Position numbers and translations under genes: made by a program. A DNA stretch of 60,841 nt, counting the filler. It is 4 parts of 4 records of this genome, joined end to end, with 100 filler letters (N's around TTAATTAATTAA, not from the genome) between each part and the next. Parts side by side here need not be neighbours in the genome. Positions count along the whole stretch, not along the records: positions 1 to 16,887 come from DRR723986_17197; 3 more parts are not named here. One strand, given 5' to 3'. The notes beneath the pieces are model-generated. The model was not told the DNA's origin. It saw only the letters and a program-made list of their open reading frames with translations, and ran no database searches. Below, piece after piece: positions 1-55,202 of this stretch (position 1 is the first letter of the stretch; each line of letters starts with the position of its first letter).

Positions 1-1
1 A

Positions 2-21
2 GTAGGCACACTCCGTGTGCC
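2..21 (+). repeat. GTAG-type REP-like palindrome (copy 1)
   Basis: GTAG overlapping stem GGCACAC (5-11), loop TCC, GTGTGCC (15-21); at the contig start. Confidence 0.7.
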
Positions 22-57
22 GTTCAAGCGTGCCATCCAACCTGCCGCCCAAACAAA

Positions 58-80
58 GTAGTAAGCACGCTCCGCGTGCC
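58..80 (+). repeat. GTAG-type REP-like palindrome (copy 2)
   Basis: GTAGTAA then GCACGC-TCC-GCGTGC (65-79); same loop as copy 1, with a compensatory A:T to G:C change in the stem. Confidence 0.65.
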
Positions 81-311
81 GTCCGCATGTCAAACACCCC
101 CGATAACGAACCGTAACGCATTCAAAGTCTGCTTCCTGCCAAAGAACCGTTGATGCCAAATGACTTACGAAATCTGTCGGTTGCCTTCACGGGGACTCGG
201 CACAATTTCAGACTTTGTCGTACCCTGGGTTGGCTTCGCGTTTGCTAGGCATTAGATTCATTTCAAGCCAAGCGGCACGGGTACGAAGATTCTCGTAGAT
301 TGAATTTCGAA

Positions 312-1268
312 ATGGGCGATAGCGGAAAAGTAACCATCGATGGTGTTGAGCTGACGCTTGCATCCGAGATGAACAACGAAGCAGAGTGGATTGGCCAGCG
401 CGAGGTGCTTAAGCAGCTACTAGCCTGCTGGTTGGTCGTCGACGAGAGTGATTCGCCGCTAACACCACGTTTGGTCGGGGTTCCGGGCATCGGTAAGACG
501 GCACTTGCGATGAGCGCCGCGCGGCTACGCGAGCAAGATTTGTATGTCTTTCAATGCACCGCGGACACACGTCCGGAAGACTTGTTGGTGACTCCGGTGC
601 TCAGCAGCGGCGGTAACATCTCTTACCATGCGTCGCCACTAGTGACGGCGATGCTGAAAGGGGCGGTTTGCATTCTTGATGAAGGCAACCGCATGAACGA
701 AAAGTCATGGGCAAGCCTGGCGCCTTTGTTTGACCAACGACGTTACGTTGAGTCGATTGTTGCCGGGATTGTGATCAAGGCACATCCAGACTTTAGATGT
801 GCCGTGACCATGAACCAGGATGATTCGACCTACGAGATTCCGGACTACATCCTCAGTCGACTTCAGCCGACCTTGCAACTTGGATTCCCGAACCGACAAG
901 ACGAGTTGGCGATCCTGCAGTACCACCTGCCGTTTGCCGAGCCCGAAATGCTGGCCATGACCGTTGAGTTTCTGCAGCGGTCTCACGAGCTGAATCTTGA
1001 TTTTTCGGCCCGCGACGGACTCAACCTACTTCGTTTTGCGGTCAAGCGGATGGCGCAGGATCCGGAACATCCGGTCAGCAAGGATGACGCCTGGCGTGAG
1101 GCGCTTGAGAAATGCTTGGGAGAGGACGCGGTTAATCTCGATGCGCTGGCGAAGCGAAAGTCATCGGGCGGTCAGGGTGGTATGCCACTTGGTTTGGGAG
1201 ATTTCTTCTTCGACCCTGACGATCCGTTGCACCCAGACTTCGATGGCGACGACGATGACGACTCATGA
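312..1268 (+). CDS. MoxR/AAA_5-type AAA+ ATPase
   Basis: Walker A GVPGIGKT, Walker B ILDEGNR, HPDFR..TMN sensor region, LSRL Arg finger; acidic C-terminal tail; ATG at 312 preferred to TTG at 300; stop overlaps next start (ATGA). Confidence 0.85.
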
Positions 1269-3247
1269 TTGAGCGTCACGACAGCGTGTCCTCCAGCCGT
1301 GTTGACTCGCTTGAGCATCGCCTGACAGTAGCACTCAAGGACGCTTGCAGGTTCCTTGACGCAGAGCGGACTCCTCTGGGACACTGGACCGGGGAGCTTT
1401 CAACGTCCGCACTTTCGACCGCGACGGCCGTTAGCGCGATTTCACAGGTTCTCCAGGCGCATCGCCAAGTTCCAAGTCTAAGCGAATCAGAAGTCGCCAG
1501 CCTGGAGCGGATCGTCCACGCCGGCTGTGCTTGGCTGCTTGAGCACCAGAACGCTGACGGTGGTTTTGGCGATACAAACAAGAGCCACTCAAACATCGCG
1601 ACAACCTTTCTGGTCTTAGCCGCTTGGAGGCTCGCGGGATTTTCCGATGCGGGGCAACCAAGCGATGTCGATTCCCCCGTTTGTGCAGCACAGCGGTATG
1701 TTGACGAACAAGGCAGTTGGGACGGACTGCGGCGTCGATATGGCAAGGACAAGACGTTTGTTGTTCCCATCCTCAGCAACTGTGCCCTGGCTGGGATGGT
1801 AGAGTGGAAGCGGGTGCCACACCTGCCCTTCGAAGCAGCATGGCTACCACAAAAGTACTATCGATTGGCTCGCATGCCAGTCGTCAGCTATGCGGTCCCA
1901 GCACTTGTCGCCATTGGACAGGCAACGTTCTTCCATAACACACCGTTCAATCCTTTGGTTCGTTGCGTCCGTACTGCGGCGAAGAAACCAACTCTCCGTG
2001 TGCTCGACGCGATGCAGCCTGACAGCGGTGGCTATCTAGAAGCAACGCCGCTTACGAGCTTCGTGCTGATGAATCTTGCCAGCATCGAACTCGCCAATCA
2101 CCCCGTTGCAAAGCGATGTTTGAGCTTTCTGGTGGATAGTGTCTTGGAAGATGGTAGTTGGCCGATCGACACAAACCTTGCCACTTGGGTGACCAGTCTC
2201 GGTACGCTCGCCCGCAGCAAAGCTCAAAAGGCCCTAGCGCTTGACGAGCCGAGATGCAGTGACGCTGGAGTCGAGACAACCGAGGCCAGGGAAGAGGTGT
2301 TGCCTGTTGGCGGTCTGGACTGGCTGCTGAGTTGCCAACACTTGACGCGGCATCCCTTCACTGGCGCTGATCCGGGCGGTTGGGGGTGGACCGATTTAAG
2401 TGGCGCTGTTCCCGATTCGGACGACACTCCCGGCGCCATTCTTGCACTCCTTAGTCTCGGGAGTTTGTCGACCCGGCCGATTTTGAATGATCGAAGATTG
2501 CGCGCGACCGCCCGAGGACTAAACTGGCTGGTGCGACTTCAGAATCGCGATGGCGGCATGCCGACTTTCTGCAAAGGCTGGGGGAAACTGCCCTTTGATA
2601 GAAGCGGGACCGACCTGACAGCACATGCCTTGAGAGCGATGAGAGCCGCGAGTGGTCAGCTCGATTCGATGCGACAGCTCGCGGAAGTCCCGACGGATCG
2701 GCAAATCCAGCGTTTCGTTGAGCGGAGCTTTCAATTTATCGCCAAACGCCAACTTGCCGACGGGTCCTGGCTACCACTGTGGTTTGGAAATCAAGATCGA
2801 GAAGATGAAGAGAACCCGGTTTACGGAACCAGCAAGGTACTCCTGGCTTACGCCTCCTACGGACTCAGCCGCAGTCGCGAGGCCCAGCGAGGCATCAAAT
2901 ACCTGAAGAAATGCCAGAACGCAGACGGCGGCTGGGGGGGCGGACCGAGCGTCCGTTACCTTACGAATTCGCCACAATCCTCCGACCTTACCAGCACGAT
3001 CGAAGAAACGGCACTTGCCATCGAGGCACTGTGTGAGTGTGGTGGTCAGCCAGCGACGGATGCAAGTATAATGCGAGGAGTCGAGTGGTTGATTGACCAT
3101 TCGACGCCGGAGGTCCTGGCGAATTCGCAACCGATCGGTTTCTACTTCGCAAAGCTCTGGTACCACGAACGACTTTACCCCGCGATCTTCAGCGTCGCCG
3201 CACTTGCGTCGGCATTGAGTCGATTATGCGCGCACGATGACGCTTGA
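1265..3247 (+). CDS. Squalene-hopene-cyclase-like class II terpene cyclase (divergent)
   Basis: Multiple QW repeats ([35 protein letters not shown]) and catalytic DxDD motif PDSDDT at about 2411-2428; 660 aa, two-domain size. Confidence 0.88.
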
Positions 3248-3331
3248 TCGTTTCGCAAAAAACTCCATGCAGCAGTGATTCCGTCAAGCGCTGCTGGATT
3301 TTCATATACGTAGATTGTCAGGAGCGACAGC

Positions 3332-5251
3332 TTGTCCACTGTACCTACCCAGGCTGGCAAAAATGCCGCCGGCGAAAGTGATGCCGGGACCAACGGTGCG
3401 ACCAATGCCAAAGCGGAGGGAGAACAACCCAAACGCCGGAGCCGTCGTCGAAAGACAAGCCACCTTAAGCTGGTTCCGGAAACGCTTGAGCTGCGAGAGC
3501 GGTTAAAGCAACGATGTGCCGAAGTTGCGAGCAAGCTTGATAGATCGATTCCGATGACCAAGGATGAGATGGAATCGGTCTCTCGCCGCTTGCTCGACGA
3601 GGAGGGGCTGGGCGAGGGCTACGTTGGCTGGATCATGGTGATGCTCAGCGGGGAGTTCTATCGCGATCAAGTCGCTGCAACTGATCCGCGACGCCGACTC
3701 TTTCTCCTGCCACACTGCCTGAAGCACGCAGAAGGCTGCCCCGCAGACTATGACGAATTCGGCATGAACTGCCGCGAATGCGGAGCGTGTAGCATCGCCG
3801 ACTTCCGAACGCTGGCCGAAGACATGGGCTATCGAGTCCTAGTGGCCGAGGGCTCTCCGGTTGTGATGAAAATCATTGTTTCCGGTTACGTGGACGCGAT
3901 TGTCGGTGTCGCCTGTTTGAACGTGCTAGAGAAAGCGATCGACAAGATCCTGCTGGCCGGGATTCCCTGCATGGCCGTGCCGCTGCTATCGAGCGACTGC
4001 CGCAATACGAAGGTTGACGAGCACTGGGTGAGCGAGATGATCCGCACCGAGTCATCTGGCTCAACGCCGAAGACTCGCAGCTACGTCCACTTGCTCCGCG
4101 CGGCGAATGACCTATTCCAAGGTGAGACGTTTAAGCGCCTCGCCCCACGAACAAGAGCTTCTTCTGAGGAAGCTGTCGATCCTGCCGACGACACGGATCT
4201 GATCAGCGGCATTGATCCGATTGCTTCCACCGAAACGCTTGCTCTCGACTTTGCGGCTCGCGGAGGCAAGTACTCACGTCCGTTCATTACGCTGGCTACC
4301 TACGACGCCCTCAGCGGTGGACAGGCAACGGCAGAGAATGGCGACGAAGTGACCTCATCCTACTCCGATGCTGTCCTCCGTTCGGCCATGAGCATCGAGA
4401 TGTTCCACAAGGCCAGCTTGGTCCACGACGATATCGAAGACGACGATCAGTATCGTTACGGCCAACAAACCATGCACCGCAAGTACGGACTTGCGACGGC
4501 GATTAATGTGGGCGACTACATGATTGGTCTGGGATACCGCTTGGTCAGCCGTCACACTGGCGACCTCGGCGCGGACTGTGCTGCTGACATTATGGATTGC
4601 CTGGCCAACGCCCACACCCGATTGGCCGAAGGGCAAGGGGCTGAACTGCTCTGGCGAGACCGTGGCGACCGAGCGCTGACACCGCTGGATGCACTTAAGA
4701 TCTACGCTCTCAAGACGTCACCAGCGTTCGAGGCGGCTCTGTTGACCGGCGCACGCTTGGCTGGCGAGATCGACACTCTGCAAGGGCCACTTCGCGCATA
4801 CGCCCGCAACATTGGAGTCGCTTTCCAGATACTTAACGACCTGGGCGACTGGGATGGTGATGATCACAATAAGCTCTCCGCTGGTGGCGACGTTCTCGGT
4901 GGTCGACCCACACTCCTTTGGGCCCTAGCTTTGCACTCCCTTGCACCCGAGCAGCGGCAGGAGCTGCTCGATTTGGCGGATGACAATACACAGCCAGCAA
5001 GTGAGAAGATTCGCAAGGTACGCAAGCTCTACGAAGCGGCTGGGGCATTCGAGCAAGCTCGACGATTGGTCGACAAACACGAAGCACGTGCACTCGAGGC
5101 CGCCGCCGAAATCGAATCGCCTGCCATGCAGCGATTGCTGATGTACTTGGTCGACACGGTTCTCGAGCGCAGTGAGCCGGCGAGTCCAACGGTGGTGTCT
5201 GTGTCCGGCGTGGGAAGCTTGCCCATCGTTGCCGGCAACAAGACCGCTTAG
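3332..5251 (+). CDS. Fusion of a Cys-rich DUF116-like domain and a trans-polyprenyl diphosphate synthase
   Basis: N-terminal part LPHCL..C..CRECGAC..GVAC..DC; C-terminal part GGKYSRP, FARM HDDIEDDD-RYG, GQGAEL, KTS, SARM-variant FQILNDLGD; start codon uncertain (TTG). Confidence 0.85.
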   Translation: MSTVPTQAGKNAAGESDAGTNGATNAKAEGEQPKRRSRRRKTSHLKLVPETLELRERLKQRCAEVASKLDRSIPMTKDEMESVSRRLLDEEGLGEGYVGWIMVMLSGEFYRDQVAATDPRRRLFLLPHCLKHAEGCPADYDEFGMNCRECGACSIADFRTLAEDMGYRVLVAEGSPVVMKIIVSGYVDAIVGVACLNVLEKAIDKILLAGIPCMAVPLLSSDCRNTKVDEHWVSEMIRTESSGSTPKTRSYVHLLRAANDLFQGETFKRLAPRTRASSEEAVDPADDTDLISGIDPIASTETLALDFAARGGKYSRPFITLATYDALSGGQATAENGDEVTSSYSDAVLRSAMSIEMFHKASLVHDDIEDDDQYRYGQQTMHRKYGLATAINVGDYMIGLGYRLVSRHTGDLGADCAADIMDCLANAHTRLAEGQGAELLWRDRGDRALTPLDALKIYALKTSPAFEAALLTGARLAGEIDTLQGPLRAYARNIGVAFQILNDLGDWDGDDHNKLSAGGDVLGGRPTLLWALALHSLAPEQRQELLDLADDNTQPASEKIRKVRKLYEAAGAFEQARRLVDKHEARALEAAAEIESPAMQRLLMYLVDTVLERSEPASPTVVSVSGVGSLPIVAGNKTA

Positions 5252-5289
5252 CAGCGAATCATTTTCTCCGATTTCCCTTAGCGGTTTCC

Positions 5290-5850
5290 GTGATGAACGA
5301 AAAGCAGCAAGCAGTCGAGCTGGATCTTCTGTTGTCACTCTTCTATGACGATGCATCAGAGCTGGCAAGCTTCACCGCTCGCAATGCGGAAGACTGCCCA
5401 GACGCTTACCGTGAATTACTTGCCCACGAAGCCCACATGACCGTCACGGTCGAGCGCCGCCACGGCTGCGAGGTCGACGTTGAAGTAGTTAGATCCCGCA
5501 CTGAGGGCCAACACTACCTTCGCGAGATTCTGCTGCGACGAAAATCAGATCGACGCGTTGTTCAGTATGGAATCGTCCGCCTAGCACTCGATACTCTGGA
5601 GCCAGTTGTACGAGATGAGATCCTTTCGGGGGAAATACCCCTAGGCCGCGTCTTGATCAATCACGATGTACTCCGCGATGTCCAGTTGCAAGGACTCTGG
5701 CAAACCACCATCGGTCCCGCCTTGGCTTCCTTGATGGAGATTCCCGCGGAAGGCGACACGTACGGCCGAACCGCGCTCATTTTCTGCAACGGTCGCCCAG
5801 GGGTTGAGCTACTGGAGGTCGTTGCGCCGGAGAGCAGCTTCGACGGTTGA
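5290..5850 (+). CDS. Chorismate-lyase (UbiC/UTRA)-fold protein, putative 4-hydroxybenzoate synthase-like
   Basis: MTVTVE..YLREILL..VVQYGIVR..EIPLGRVL..YGRT..ELLEV pattern resembles the UbiC/DUF98 motifs (T..LE, REV.L, PLG..L, R.S, E.F). Confidence 0.6.
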   Translation: MMNEKQQAVELDLLLSLFYDDASELASFTARNAEDCPDAYRELLAHEAHMTVTVERRHGCEVDVEVVRSRTEGQHYLREILLRRKSDRRVVQYGIVRLALDTLEPVVRDEILSGEIPLGRVLINHDVLRDVQLQGLWQTTIGPALASLMEIPAEGDTYGRTALIFCNGRPGVELLEVVAPESSFDG

Positions 5851-5916
5851 TCGCTCGCCATACTAACAACAGCGGGCTGCCTATCATTTCCCCACACCAG
5901 ATGCCTGAGGCGACAG

Positions 5917-6978
5917 TTGGCTGAGATCCCTGCCATTGAGACGGTCGGATTGACAAAGCGTTTCGGTGATTTCACGTCGCTGCTGGACTGTGATCTGACG
6001 ATTCGCCAAGGGCAAATATTTGGTCTACTTGGGCCGAATGGAGCTGGAAAATCGACTCTAATTCGCCTGATCGTCGGCATGTTAACGCCAACTGCCGGGA
6101 CAGGAACGGTTCTCGGCGCGGATATCGTTACTCAGTCACTCTTGGTGAAAAACCGAACTGCCTATCTGCCAGGCGATGCACGGCTTTACAAAGCGATGCG
6201 AGGTCGTCAAGTTACTGAGCTGTTTGCCGGGCTGCGTGGACTGCCCGATTCCAAGCGATCGAATGCGATCGCAGACGCCCTTGAACTCGATCTGTCGCGA
6301 CGCGTCGGCTTGATGTCGACTGGTATGAAACAGAAGCTCGCAATTGCAATAACTCTTGGCAGCAACGCGCCGGTTATGATCTTGGATGAACCCACGGCAA
6401 ATCTAGATCCCGAAATACGACGTGAGACTCTCAATCAAGTTGTTCGGGCACGAGATGAAGGAAGCACCATCCTCCTTTCGTCACATCTGTTTAGCGACAT
6501 TGACGGCACCTGCGATGAAGTGGCGGTGCTGAGAGCTGGGCAGATCATCGCGCGTGAACAACTTCGCGGCGACAACACGACCCGCGTGGTTAACTTCACA
6601 GCCAAGTCCGAAGGCGCGATCACTAAATTGATCGAGTTGTGCGGCTTCGATTCCGCCGGTTCGGCAATTAAAGAGTCGGCTGATGCGTTACCTGACAACT
6701 CTTCTGGTACACAGTCTCGAGAGTTGACTCTCGCCCCGAGCGTTACGGGCATTGTGCGAGCCGAGGAAAATGGCCGACTTCGCGTCACTCTCTACTGTGA
6801 ATCGGAAAGCTACCGCGTCGTTCAGTCGATTTGCCAATTAGGTGAAGATGGAACGATCGATGAATTGAGCGTTCGGACCGTAGGCGTCGAAGCGATCTAC
6901 GATCGTGCAATCCAGGCCGCTGTCCTGTCTGATAGCTCAGACGTCATCGACACCCCGAGCTCGGCGGCAGCACAATGA
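5917..6978 (+). CDS. ABC-2-type exporter ATP-binding protein
   Basis: GPNGAGKS, signature variant MSTGMKQK, ILDEPT, SSH switch. Confidence 0.9.
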   Translation: MAEIPAIETVGLTKRFGDFTSLLDCDLTIRQGQIFGLLGPNGAGKSTLIRLIVGMLTPTAGTGTVLGADIVTQSLLVKNRTAYLPGDARLYKAMRGRQVTELFAGLRGLPDSKRSNAIADALELDLSRRVGLMSTGMKQKLAIAITLGSNAPVMILDEPTANLDPEIRRETLNQVVRARDEGSTILLSSHLFSDIDGTCDEVAVLRAGQIIAREQLRGDNTTRVVNFTAKSEGAITKLIELCGFDSAGSAIKESADALPDNSSGTQSRELTLAPSVTGIVRAEENGRLRVTLYCESESYRVVQSICQLGEDGTIDELSVRTVGVEAIYDRAIQAAVLSDSSDVIDTPSSAAAQ

Positions 6979-7943
6979 CGCGACTCCTTGTTCAGAAGTT
7001 CATTCTCGAATCCAGGTGGTTGCTCGTTGGATGCACTGCCTTGATTTCAACGTTCTTCCTTGCCCGCATTTGGGTTCTCTGCCAGTTTGACCTGGAGCAG
7101 TTTAGGCCGCTTGTTGATCAACTAGATGCATTTAAGCAGTTCCTGCCGTTCCCACTTGAGCAAGTCCTGACTTATCCTGGCAGCCTAGCCGTTTCGTTCA
7201 ATGATCCGGTCGTGATCCTATCAGTACTCGTGTGGTCTGTGGCTCGCGGCACCGACGTGGTCGCTGGGGAACTTGGGCGGGGAACGCTGGAAATACTGCT
7301 AACCCAGCCGGTATCACGCTTACGATTGGTGCTTGTGCATTGGTTGATGTCTGTTCTAGGCCTTGCGATCATCTGCTTCGCTGCGTGGCTGAGTATTTTC
7401 GTGGCCGTGGAAATGAACAGCGTCACTGAAACAGTCAGCAGCTCGGCGACCGTCCGACTTCCACTGATCCCGCTGAACATTCCGATACCGCTGGGCGAGA
7501 CAAGCGAAATTGAAGTTCCGCTTGCCGATAAAGTGGATGCCTACCACTTCATTCAACCTTGCTTGAACCTATTCGGTTTCGGATTCATTGTGCTGTCCGC
7601 AAGTGTTTTCTTCAGTTGCATTGAGCGATTCAGGTGGCGAGCCATCGGGCTGACACTCAGCCTTTACATCGTTCAACTGTTAATTTTCATGCTCAGTCGC
7701 ATTGGTGAAGCGACCAACTGGCTTGGCAACTTGAGCATCCTTGGGTATTACCAACCAGACTGGATCGCTTGGCGTTCTGGGCGAGAGGGTGTATCGTGGA
7801 ATCTTGTTACCGAGACGACGTCGGCCTGGCCCAATTCGATGAGTCCGGTTGTGATGATAGCGACGCTCGTCGTGGTGGGATGTTTGCTCGCGGCATCCGG
7901 AATATTCCTGTTCAAGCGCCGCGACTTACCGGCTCCGTTGTAG
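6975..7943 (+). CDS. ABC-2-type exporter permease
   Basis: Multiple TM segments, AGELGRGTLEILLTQPVSR motif, C-terminal FKRRDL; ATGA overlap with the ATPase. Confidence 0.88.
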   Translation: MTRLLVQKFILESRWLLVGCTALISTFFLARIWVLCQFDLEQFRPLVDQLDAFKQFLPFPLEQVLTYPGSLAVSFNDPVVILSVLVWSVARGTDVVAGELGRGTLEILLTQPVSRLRLVLVHWLMSVLGLAIICFAAWLSIFVAVEMNSVTETVSSSATVRLPLIPLNIPIPLGETSEIEVPLADKVDAYHFIQPCLNLFGFGFIVLSASVFFSCIERFRWRAIGLTLSLYIVQLLIFMLSRIGEATNWLGNLSILGYYQPDWIAWRSGREGVSWNLVTETTSAWPNSMSPVVMIATLVVVGCLLAASGIFLFKRRDLPAPL

Positions 7944-8075
7944 TCTTGTGCCTGGATATCACTCAAATCCCAACGTGTAGGGAGTGAGGTTCCAGCCTTC
8001 GGCGGCGTCCGACAGTTCGTATAGTTCGCCCGCTGTTTCCAATCCATCAAAACCACCTTCGAAAAGTTTAGAACC

Positions 8076-8525
8076 ATGAAGGGCACGTACGGCATCATTG
8101 CTGCAATTTGTTTCTTTGCGGCATCTGGATGTTCCAGCCAACTTGAGACCTATCCCGTGAAGGGGATGGTGGAGTTTGAAAACGGGCGACCAGTTGTGCT
8201 GGGCACGGTCGAATTCTTGTCGTTGGATCACAAACTGAACGCCAGCGGCACTATTCAGGAAGACGGTACGTTTGAGCTAACGACGTTTGAAGAGGGCGAC
8301 GGTGCAGTCGCAGGAAAGCACAAGTGTGTGGTCATTCAAATGGTGATTGGAGAAGACATCACTCGGAGTCATCGAGCAAGTACCGTTGGCGTAGTGGATC
8401 CGCGCTATGGTTCCTACGACACCTCTGGTTTAGACGCCACCATTACCGAAGGCAAGAACGAAGTAAAACTCATCGTCCGCGGCATGAAACGCCAACCCGC
8501 CCCTGGTGAATCACACTCCCACTGA
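8076..8525 (+). CDS. Planctomycete-type lipoprotein (carboxypeptidase-regulatory-like beta domain)
   Basis: Lipobox ASGC; YPVKG.V, G.I..DG.F.L.T..GDGAV.G.HK, P.Y....SGL pattern typical of planctomycete lipoproteins. Confidence 0.75.
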   Translation: MKGTYGIIAAICFFAASGCSSQLETYPVKGMVEFENGRPVVLGTVEFLSLDHKLNASGTIQEDGTFELTTFEEGDGAVAGKHKCVVIQMVIGEDITRSHRASTVGVVDPRYGSYDTSGLDATITEGKNEVKLIVRGMKRQPAPGESHSH

Positions 8526-8572
8526 GGTCATCATTTTCCGAATGGTATCGACATCGTTGCCGAATCGAATCG

Positions 8573-9496
8573 TTACGGAATGAAGTTCTTGAGGTAGCGG
8601 TAGCTTTGTCGAAGGGAGTCTTTCCTGGATTCAAGGGAACCTTCGTAGGCTCTATCTTCAACTTCGACGCAGACTGCTCCGGTGTATCCGTTATCAAGTA
8701 ACACCGAGAAGAACTTGCCCCAATTCACTTCGCCCAGGCCAGGCAACTTGGGCGTGTGATACTCCAGCGGATGTGCCAAGATCCCCACGTCGTTCAGCTT
8801 CTCACGGTCTAGCCGAACGTCTTTTGCATGAGCATGAAAGATCCTGTCCGAGAAATCTCGGAGAGGTGCGAGGTAGTCCATTTGCTGCCAAACAAGATGC
8901 GATGGGTCGTAGTTCAGGCCAACGTTCACGGACCCCAGGTCATTGAACAGACGTCTCCAAATCTTTGGTGAAGTGGCAATGTTCTTGCCGCCCGGCCATT
9001 CATCTTCACTGAATAGCATTGGGCAATTTTCAATACCGAGTTTCAGGTCGAGCGAATCAACTTTCTCCACAATCGGACGCCATGAATCCAACAGACGCGG
9101 CCAGTTGTCTTCGACGCTCTTTGTGAAATCGCGACCGATGAAAGTATTCAGATTGGCGACACCGAGCGCCTTTGCAGAGTCGCATAGCCGCAATAGATGC
9201 TCTCGCGCGATTCTGGCCTCTTCAGCTACTGGTGAGAGTGGGTTAGGGTAGTAGCCCAACGCGCTAATCGCTACACCGGTGTCGGCTACAGTTTTCTGAA
9301 TTCCGGCCAACCCCTTTTCATCGAGTTTGTCTGCATCGATGTGCGTTACACCTGCGTAGCGTCGTTCGGCCTTGCTTGGCGGCCAACACATAACTTCGAC
9401 GCAATCAAATCCGACTTCAGCGGCAAAGGTGAAAAGCTCGTCAAAACTGAGCTCAGGAAGGATAGCGCTTGCAAATCCAAGTTGAATCACTGACAT
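8573..9496 (-). CDS. Sugar phosphate isomerase/epimerase (AP-endonuclease-2 TIM barrel)
   Basis: [26 protein letters not shown] and VEVED metal-binding motifs. Confidence 0.85.
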
Positions 9497-16887: not shown

Positions 16888-16987
16888 NNNNNNNNNNNNN
16901 NNNNNNNNNNNNNNNNNNNNNNNNNNNNNNNTTAATTAATTAANNNNNNNNNNNNNNNNNNNNNNNNNNNNNNNNNNNNNNNNNNNN
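16888..16987. other. Artificial contig spacer
   Basis: N-run, TTAATTAATTAA (stops in all six frames), N-run; base composition changes across it. Confidence 0.98.
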
Positions 16988-48488: not shown

Positions 48489-48588
48489 NNNNNNNNNNNN
48501 NNNNNNNNNNNNNNNNNNNNNNNNNNNNNNNNTTAATTAATTAANNNNNNNNNNNNNNNNNNNNNNNNNNNNNNNNNNNNNNNNNNNN
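48489..48588. other. Artificial contig spacer
   Basis: N-run, TTAATTAATTAA, N-run. Confidence 0.98.
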
Positions 48589-55102: not shown

Positions 55103-55202
55103 NNNNNNNNNNNNNNNNNNNNNNNNNNNNNNNNNNNNNNNNNNNNTTAATTAATTAANNNNNNNNNNNNNNNNNNNNNNNNNNNNNNNNNNNNNNNNNN
55201 NN
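55103..55202. other. Artificial contig spacer
   Basis: N-run, TTAATTAATTAA, N-run. Confidence 0.98.

Follow-up and report, generated by a model that had tools for sequence, protein, structure and literature searches.

A DUF116–polyprenyl synthase fusion linked to an orphan 'SHC-like' cyclase in Pirellulaceae, and its possible role as a pathway-dedicated synthase

We analysed a two-domain gene located in a 60,841-nt stretch of DNA (the window), in which a cysteine-rich DUF116 domain is fused to the N-terminus of a trans-polyprenyl diphosphate synthase. By a small measure it is probable that this protein is a polyprenyl diphosphate synthase dedicated to a single pathway: it would feed the orphan cyclase encoded directly upstream, which resembles squalene-hopene cyclases (SHC), and DUF116 would act as a metal- or iron-sulphur (Fe-S)-binding accessory module. 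The DUF116–polyprenyl synthase fusion is already known, and the window gene is another orthologue. Makarova et al. 2015 (PMC5898192) report DUF116 fused to polyprenyl synthetase in Pirellula staleyi (Psta_0175), and describe DUF116 as a domain that is probably flavodoxin-like and metal-binding, with six or more cysteines, a CxxCxxC motif among them; they suggest electron transfer as its role. That such a fusion gives DUF116 a biochemical context, a point also made in the initial annotation of the window, is likewise an idea already in print in that work. With the same fusion in the literature, the window gene adds no new kind of object.

Results

Domain composition and relatives of the fusion

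Both domains proposed for this gene in the initial annotation are confirmed by Pfam, far over their cut-offs: DUF116 (PF01976) with an E-value of 1.4e-39 (135.5 bits, cut-off 25) and polyprenyl_synt (PF00348) with 1.5e-44 (152.5 bits, cut-off 27). The open reading frame (ORF) starts with TTG, and no other in-frame ATG, GTG or TTG is found ahead of codon 75. An AGGAG sequence 7 nt upstream of this codon, together with alignments of relatives that begin at residues 1-36 of the window fusion, argues for the long form; judging from these features, a protein of 639 residues is the likely product. Scanning positions 1-8600 for promoters and terminators gave only background: promoter-like sites number 3 (3.8 expected) and terminator-like sites 10 (8.8 expected).

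A word-indexed search with the window fusion scored 8000 candidates, 6561 of which are related at E <= 1e-3. The best 120 of these 6561 all carry PF01976 and PF00348, at 64-88% identity; their named sources are Pirellulaceae, Aureliella (Aureliella helgolandensis), Blastopirellula and unclassified Planctomycetota. An exhaustive search with the DUF116 part (222 aa) yielded 1010 cluster representatives at E <= 1e-3. Among the best 150 of them, 66 proteins have at least 500 aa; aligned with the window fusion, they make up the 67 rows to which the conservation counts below refer. The cysteines and motifs described below recur in relatives down to ~30% identity and, on this comparative evidence, are not chance features.

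A conserved gene set around the fusion

The linkage between the cyclase and the fusion is strong. We compared 80 related Pirellulaceae loci from genome contigs, with fusions at 60-88% identity to that of the window. In 74 of them the gene immediately preceding the fusion, on the same strand, is that of the cyclase; a gene for a 186-aa protein, p186, follows the fusion directly in 71; and both neighbours are present in 66. Of the 6 loci in which the cyclase was missed, 4 have fewer than 300 bases of contig on the relevant side, as have 7 of the 9 in which p186 was missed. Conservation in these loci does not extend to the AAA ATPase and ABC transporter genes of the window. We also fetched 20 fusion loci from further away in the phylum; the sequence retrieved includes the cyclase in 15.

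Same-strand neighbours were scanned at 14 distant fusion loci; not every ORF was covered, and the counts are lower bounds. A PF00432 toroid-repeat protein of ~300 aa is encoded next to the fusion in at least 11 of the 14, and a radical S-adenosylmethionine (SAM) enzyme, of SPASM-like or B12-binding type, near it in at least 9. A ferredoxin-like protein with two [4Fe-4S] sites (2x[4Fe-4S]) occurs in at least 5 and a CobW-type GTPase in at least 4. The radical-SAM, ferredoxin-like and CobW-type neighbours of these other lineages fit a metal or Fe-S role of DUF116. In Pirellulaceae, the SPASM-like radical SAM enzyme (54-57% identity) and the toroid protein (34-37%) are still encoded, but away from the fusion; neither was found in the window.

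Besides the fusion, each of five related genomes has 2-3 unfused PF00348 genes. In one complete chromosome these encode a farnesyl diphosphate (FPP) synthase (309.4 bits, cut-off 275), a long-chain-type synthase and a third paralogue. The presence of separate FPP-type and long-chain-type synthases in related genomes indicates that the fusion is not the housekeeping enzyme.

The upstream cyclase

The product of the upstream gene matches SQHop_cyclase_C (E 4.4e-32) and SQHop_cyclase_N (E 1.4e-14), PF13243 and PF13249 both being hit, and its closest solved structure is the SHC 1gsz (E 8.3e-13). It scores below the models for SHC proper, with 126.5 bits against 322.7 for TIGR01787 and 113.5 against 431.1 for TIGR01507. 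Residues D384, D386, D387 and T388 of its general-acid motif are invariant in 63 of 63 aligned orthologues. In the five related genomes no gene exceeds the TIGR01787 cut-off, and the top match in each is the cyclase adjacent to the fusion. By taxon, motif and context, the window cyclase appears to be a member of the 'SHC-like' class II clade.

The stop codon of the AAA ATPase gene lies within a 4-nt overlap with the start of the cyclase gene, suggestive of translational coupling. Of the 80 loci, two have a homologue of this ATPase: in the nearest relative (locus L001, 93% identity) it precedes the cyclase, and in L074 it is placed elsewhere. The ATPase gene is a lineage-specific neighbour outside the conserved core.

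At four distant loci, L176-L179, the stop-to-stop frame holding the fusion is 723-1132 aa long and overlaps the frame of the upstream cyclase. These are probably open frames of high-GC DNA and not larger fusions.

Cysteines and fold of the DUF116 module

The module carries the pattern C-x6-C-x10-C-x2-C-x2-C ... C ... C. Its residues C129, C136, C147, C150, C153, C195 and C223 are each kept in 63-65 of the 67 fusion rows, and all 25 stand-alone DUF116 proteins compared from the phylum have the same seven. Four other cysteines of the window fusion (C62, C213, C416 and C423) are not conserved in the alignment. The initial annotation had made its metal-binding proposal depend on conservation of the cysteines in homologues, and these seven are indeed conserved. 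It had also read an HC..C..CRECGAC string at positions 3770-3790; the CRECGAC part, with the CxxCxxC motif, is indeed there (residues 147-153), whereas HC..C lies upstream, at 3713-3739 (residues 128-136). Metal binding by the conserved cysteines is plausible, given this pattern.

An AlphaFold2 model of residues 42-263, computed from 150 sequences, has a mean predicted local distance difference test (pLDDT) score of 94.6 and a predicted template modelling (pTM) score of 0.91. The model predicts three N-terminal helices followed by a four-strand α/β core of Rossmann/flavodoxin-like type. According to its secondary-structure string, C129, C195 and C223 come directly after strands 1, 3 and 4, and the C136-C153 cluster falls within a loop inserted after strand 1. 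The fusion protein has no hydrophobic stretch outside the core.

Comparison of the model with the PDB by Foldseek gave no solved structure at E <= 1e-3. A structural search against representatives returned generic Rossmann, receiver and periplasmic-binding folds only, with a best Z of 5.6, and phmmer with the DUF116 domain found no PDB match below E 0.5. The ESM Atlas offered only sub-threshold leads, namely a hypothetical protein (0.83) and a Prismane/CO-dehydrogenase domain (0.75). The papers searched for DUF116, COG1852 and PF01976 contained no functional study.

Two DUF116 homologues have an in-frame TGA codon, and selenocysteine was considered. In locus L144 this codon precedes the domain, whose cysteines are all in place; the idea was rejected for that locus.

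Distribution of DUF116 and origin of the fusion

DUF116 is present in 122 of 301 sampled genomes of the phylum. The sample contains 147 matches, 78 of them in open frames of at least 480 aa, and the domain is single-copy in each of the five related genomes. In a midpoint-rooted FastTree phylogeny of 128 DUF116 domains, 92 fusion domains and one contig-end fragment form one clade (support 0.68). Its sister group (support 0.97) consists of 13 stand-alone forms of 200-370 aa, and the forms of 155-190 aa are placed outside.

The branch nearest to the fusion, that of the mid-size proteins, touches isoprenoid genes more than once. At 10 mid-size loci, the adjacent gene is IspH in 2, an Rce1-like gene in 3 and ThiD2/ThiE in 2; MurJ is nearby in 3, CNNM adjacent in 2 and RsmB adjacent in 1. 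For a Bipolaricaulota isolate, a figure legend of a preprint lists a DUF116 gene separated by two genes' distance from ispH and close to SHC, hpnH and polyprenyl synthase genes.

At L151 and L154 a stop-to-stop IspH (LytB) frame of 584-599 aa lies directly beside a stand-alone DUF116 gene; the frame may represent a single fused gene or a pair of genes read as one. In the L139/L151 genome, the C-terminal part of the IspH frame gives a sub-cut-off UbiA-type match (one locus). Short stand-alone DUF116 genes (~155-190 aa) are situated between fmt and rsmB in many genomes (L120, L125, L127, L133-L135, L138 and others), with def just upstream in two loci. This fmt/rsmB setting is a conserved, translation-related context that current ideas on DUF116 leave unexplained.

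Motifs of the synthase domain

At E <= 1e-5, 143 solved synthases match the window fusion, the best with 5.6e-24. The two aspartate-rich motifs are where the initial annotation put them: DDIED at residues 366-370, with A361 and S362 at -5/-4, and NDLGD, instead of DDxxD, at residues 502-506. In a phmmer alignment to the solved FPP synthase 7my6, N502 takes the place of the first aspartate of DDxxD and Y376 that of the second arginine of FRRG. The two-residue insertion that 7my6 has in its first aspartate-rich motif (FARM) is missing from the window fusion. Chain length in such synthases is commonly read from the residues at -5/-4 and -8 before the first motif. In FPP synthase structures, the second arginine of RRG contacts the diphosphate of isopentenyl diphosphate (IPP).

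The catalytic set is largely kept among the fusions. It includes GGKxxRP (K in 64/67, R in 66/67), H359 (67/67), the DDIED motif itself (D366, D367 and D370, 66/67 each), GQ (Q435, 67/67), KT (K461, 66/67) and FQ..(N/D)D..D. Upstream of the first motif, A361 and S362 are each found in 66 rows and F358 in 52; the whole stretch HKASL(V/I)HDDIEDxDxxRYG is nearly invariant. Tyrosine in place of the second arginine of RRG (Y376, in 61 of 67) is a family-wide departure.

The first position of the second motif varies: it is N in 40 rows, D in 24, E in 2 and T in 1. When rows are sorted by identity, the closer subclade is characterised by N and H128, a more distant one by D. Such interchange among orthologues makes NDxxD a derived, tolerated variant inside one orthologous family. 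The suggestion, made at the outset, that NDxxD is a sign of class I terpene-synthase-like chemistry is not supported by this comparison, the other motifs being kept, and NDxxD is rejected as a defining feature of that kind. The window fusion has neither the canonical DDxxD, whose first D is present in 24 of the 67 relatives, nor the canonical RRG. As judged from its sequence, homology to the PF00348 family stands, and canonical catalysis is not assured.

The downstream DUF98-like protein

The gene for p186 starts 38 nt downstream of the fusion. The model of this protein has a pLDDT of 90.1, and its best structural match is AF1396 (DUF98, 2nwi), with a Foldseek E of 1.4e-8, a Z of 16.9 and a root mean square deviation of 2.0 over 144 aligned residues. 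Compared with UTRA effector domains it reaches a Z of ~12, and with the chorismate lyase UbiC of E. coli 10.6. Residues R78 and E176 are invariant in 29 p186 orthologues; they may be equivalents of the product-binding residues of UbiC.

A p186 homologue occurs once in each of five other fusion-bearing genomes: in one it is adjacent to the fusion, in one ~6 kb off and in three elsewhere. In 3 of the 5 (two with the homologue far from the fusion, one at ~6 kb), its flanking genes are a HemN/ChuW-like radical SAM gene on one side and a flavin halogenase/monooxygenase-like gene on the other. This trio may be a second module of the same pathway, and its context points to chemistry on an aromatic ring; on this evidence p186 is at most a candidate lyase. 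The trio of HemN/ChuW-like, DUF98-like and halogenase-like genes is seen at L193-L195 (genomes G205, G013 and G181).

The draft genome of Rhodopirellula baltica (L057/G003) has the fusion in two Pfam pieces in different frames, a p186 homologue with an in-frame stop and the radical SAM orthologue split over two contigs. These breaks look like assembly or sequencing errors, or pathway decay.

Layout of the window

The coordinates of all features are collected in Table 1. The whole window consists of four stretches split by paired 44-N spacers at 16888-16987, 48489-48588 and 55103-55202. Their GC contents are ~0.55, 0.45, 0.55 and 0.69, with ordinary chromosomal genes in each; the 45% GC stretch carries, for example, GyrA, CtaA, Asd and AmtB. 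The stretches may be separate contigs of one bin, not necessarily from one organism. The fusion gene is entirely within the first.

Table 1 Features in and around the fusion gene, in window positions.
Feature	Position	Strand	Remarks
DUF116::polyprenyl synthase fusion gene	3332..5251	+	639 aa; PF01976 + PF00348
AGGAG, Shine-Dalgarno-like site	3320..3324	+	7 nt before TTG start
DUF116 module as modelled	3455..4120	+	residues 42-263; Pfam match residues 94-237 = nt 3611-4042
Seven conserved cysteines, span	3716..4000	+	C129, C136, C147, C150, C153, C195, C223
trans-Polyprenyl diphosphate synthase domain	4250..5020	+	residues 307-563, PF00348
First Asp-rich motif DDIED	4427..4441	+	no insertion; A361/S362 at -5/-4, F358 at -8
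RYG in place of RRG after first motif	4454..4462	+	Y376 in 61 of 67 fusions
Second Asp-rich motif, variant NDLGD	4835..4849	+	residues 502-506
'SHC-like' class II terpene cyclase gene	1265..3247	+	660 aa; SQHop_cyclase N + C
DSDDT = DxDD(T) general-acid motif	2414..2428	+	residues 384-388 of cyclase
p186, DUF98/chorismate-lyase-fold protein	5290..5850	+	186 aa; 38 nt downstream of fusion
MoxR/dynein-type AAA ATPase gene	300..1268	+	322 aa; Pfam AAA_5 E 2.8e-19

Discussion

From the domain identities, the conservation of cysteines and motifs, the gene linkage and the set of synthase paralogues, we infer an enzyme activity, a chain length, a metal content, a role for DUF116 and the nature of a product. 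The fusion would be a specialised trans-polyprenyl diphosphate synthase, extra to the housekeeping ones. Most likely it builds an all-trans, head-to-tail polyprenyl diphosphate. The small residues at -5/-4 and the aromatic one at -8 suggest that the polyprenyl chain exceeds C20 and is perhaps C25-C35. It would be the substrate of the upstream DxDD 'SHC-like' cyclase, either directly or once joined to a chorismate-derived aromatic head, which may be made with the help of the downstream p186. The end product could be a cyclic terpenoid or meroterpenoid, reached by a route that does not pass through squalene. The seven-cysteine module most likely holds a metal centre, Fe-S or Zn, and serves as an accessory in electron transfer or in redox/metal sensing, for example for the radical-SAM enzyme that neighbours it in other lineages. 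That DUF116 is a second catalyst acting on the prenyl chain seems less likely than such an accessory role.

Several observations weigh against this proposal. On the side of the synthase, the NCBIfam equivalogs assign no chain-length class to the fusion at cut-off (best 145.2 bits against 450), and solved FPP, geranylgeranyl diphosphate (GGPP), hexaprenyl and octaprenyl synthases score alike against it, which makes any chain length a guess. N502 for aspartate, within the subclade, and Y376 for arginine, family-wide, put two diphosphate-binding positions off canon and make ordinary IPP condensation uncertain. As for the gene set, the cyclase was not seen in the fetched stretch of 5 of the 20 distant fusion loci, and the cluster has no UbiA-type aromatic prenyltransferase. 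A p186 profile search of these 20 loci (E <= 10, filters off) finds a homologue in one alone, no more than 7 kb away from the fusion, so the link between p186 and the fusion is lineage-specific. The p186 of the window matches no Pfam family even at E <= 10, and of its 29 orthologues 12 weakly match DUF4388, 1 matches the Rv2949c-like family (PF01947, E 0.018) and 1 matches UTRA. Finally, the fold searches link DUF116 to no known Fe-S or Zn protein, and 10 of 17 short-form stand-alone loci have the domain next to fmt, 7 of these also next to rsmB; contexts so varied imply that DUF116 is not isoprenoid-specific.

For the role of the DUF116 module there is an alternative that we regard as unlikely: the domain would be structural only, binding zinc or mediating oligomerisation with no redox or catalytic role, and the fusion would be an ordinary synthase. 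Seven cysteines could form two Zn sites, the fold search yields no Fe-S relative, and among the CobW-family GTPases near the fusion in at least 4 of 14 distant loci some are Zn chaperones by NCBIfam name (ZigA model, 3.5e-11). Against this, CxxCxxC with remote cysteines is the classic [4Fe-4S] pattern (Makarova et al. 2015, PMC5898192), Fe-S and radical-SAM genes surround the fusion in other lineages, and the strict retention of all seven cysteines by stand-alone forms in differing contexts suggests an intrinsic cofactor. It would be very improbable for the fusion to be the housekeeping long-chain synthase for the menaquinone side chain, with DUF116 as a redox-sensing regulator and p186 supplying the quinone head group. 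In its small -5/-4 residues and uninserted first motif it does resemble medium- and long-chain synthases, its best solved matches include octaprenyl and hexaprenyl synthases (E 8e-23 to 4e-20), and p186 has a chorismate-lyase fold. Yet the synthase paralogue content of related genomes leads us to reject that housekeeping task, since they hold a separate long-chain-type synthase, closest to the solanesyl, heptaprenyl and octaprenyl models, as well as an FPP synthase. The fusion is moreover linked to a terpene cyclase and not to men or mqn genes, and only the 122 of 301 sampled genomes mentioned above have DUF116.

It is also conceivable, if unlikely, that the synthase-fold domain does not elongate chains. 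It would then be an irregular coupler or a prenyltransferase acting on a non-IPP acceptor, such as an aromatic compound from the DUF98-like neighbour or a second allylic diphosphate, or it would carry out a class I terpene-synthase-like cyclisation. A precedent for irregular coupling, of the c1'-2-3 type, is chrysanthemyl diphosphate synthase. For this enzyme of plants, derived from FPP synthase, a preprint reports an NDXXD second motif as significant (bioRxiv 10.1101/169417), which recalls N502 of the fusion; Y376 in 61 of 67 fusions and the lack of a UbiA-type transferase in the cluster point the same way. The alternation of N and D among orthologues (40 against 24 of 67) argues that N is not required, and the IPP-site residues K313, R316 and H359 are retained along with the GQ, KT and FQ motifs. 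We retain a chain-elongating synthase dedicated to the cyclase as the preferred reading.

This pathway-dedicated reading can be pushed further. The Pirellulaceae trio might be the minimal core of an O2-independent route to cyclised polyprenyl-aromatic membrane lipids that replace hopanoids or sterols; the tyrosine-bearing synthase domain might itself pass its chain to a chorismate-derived ring; and DUF116 might be a new Fe-S flavodoxin-like carrier for the radical-SAM enzyme. We hold this extended version to be quite improbable.

Two sources state the substrate and product of the 'SHC-like' cyclase clade as open questions (PMC7306690; PMC12414744). The three-gene set of Pirellulaceae is compact (~4.6 kb) and tightly linked, and could be co-expressed to find its lipid. 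Such a lipid would be relevant to the biology of bacterial membranes and to how terpane fossils are attributed.

Comparison with known systems

The planctomycete fusions of the Psta_0175 type have the same two-domain architecture as the window gene, which differs from them in nothing of substance beyond sharing its subclade's N, not D, at the first position of the second motif. Stand-alone DUF116 proteins (arCOG02078/COG1852, e.g. MMP0162) possess the same seven cysteines and a flavodoxin-like core, predicted with HHpred by Makarova et al. 2015 (PMC5898192). In archaeal forms the N-terminus contains two transmembrane helices (PMC5898192), whereas the fusion has three helices before the core. 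Unlike the fusion, the stand-alone genes of the phylum are found beside fmt/rsmB, IspH, ThiDE/MurJ or Rce1-like genes.

Medium- and long-chain synthases (E. coli octaprenyl diphosphate synthase, 3wjk/5ze6; hexaprenyl diphosphate synthase, 4jxy; archaeal GGPP synthase, 1wy0) share with the fusion the fold, the order of motifs, an uninserted first DDxxD and small residues at -5/-4. The fusion differs in having NDLGD for DDxxD, RYG for RRG and an N-terminal DUF116. Chrysanthemyl diphosphate synthase has in common with it the NDXXD motif, as given in the preprint cited above, but belongs to an unrelated lineage, and N and D alternate among the orthologues of the fusion.

Dedicated head-to-tail chains, some with a benzoate-type head, are cyclised by SHC-family or related class II enzymes in the cases of Lon15 of longestin, AtoE and MstE, as described by McShea et al. 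2025 (PMC12414744); the window cluster would be like them in principle, and no epoxidase or UbiA-type transferase lies in it. Closer is the 'SHC-like' clade itself. Santana-Molina et al. 2020 (PMC7306690) state that planctomycete SHC-like proteins keep their catalytic residues and, from genomic context, that they probably use non-squalene precursors. With this clade, as it appears in the two sources (PMC7306690; PMC12414744), the window cyclase shares an intact DxDD motif, scores under the SHC model cut-offs, its occurrence in planctomycetes and linkage to a polyprenyl synthase in place of squalene synthesis genes. Compared with the operon described there, the Pirellulaceae set is cut to the cyclase, the fusion and the DUF98-like gene, and the radical-SAM and toroid-repeat genes are dispersed.

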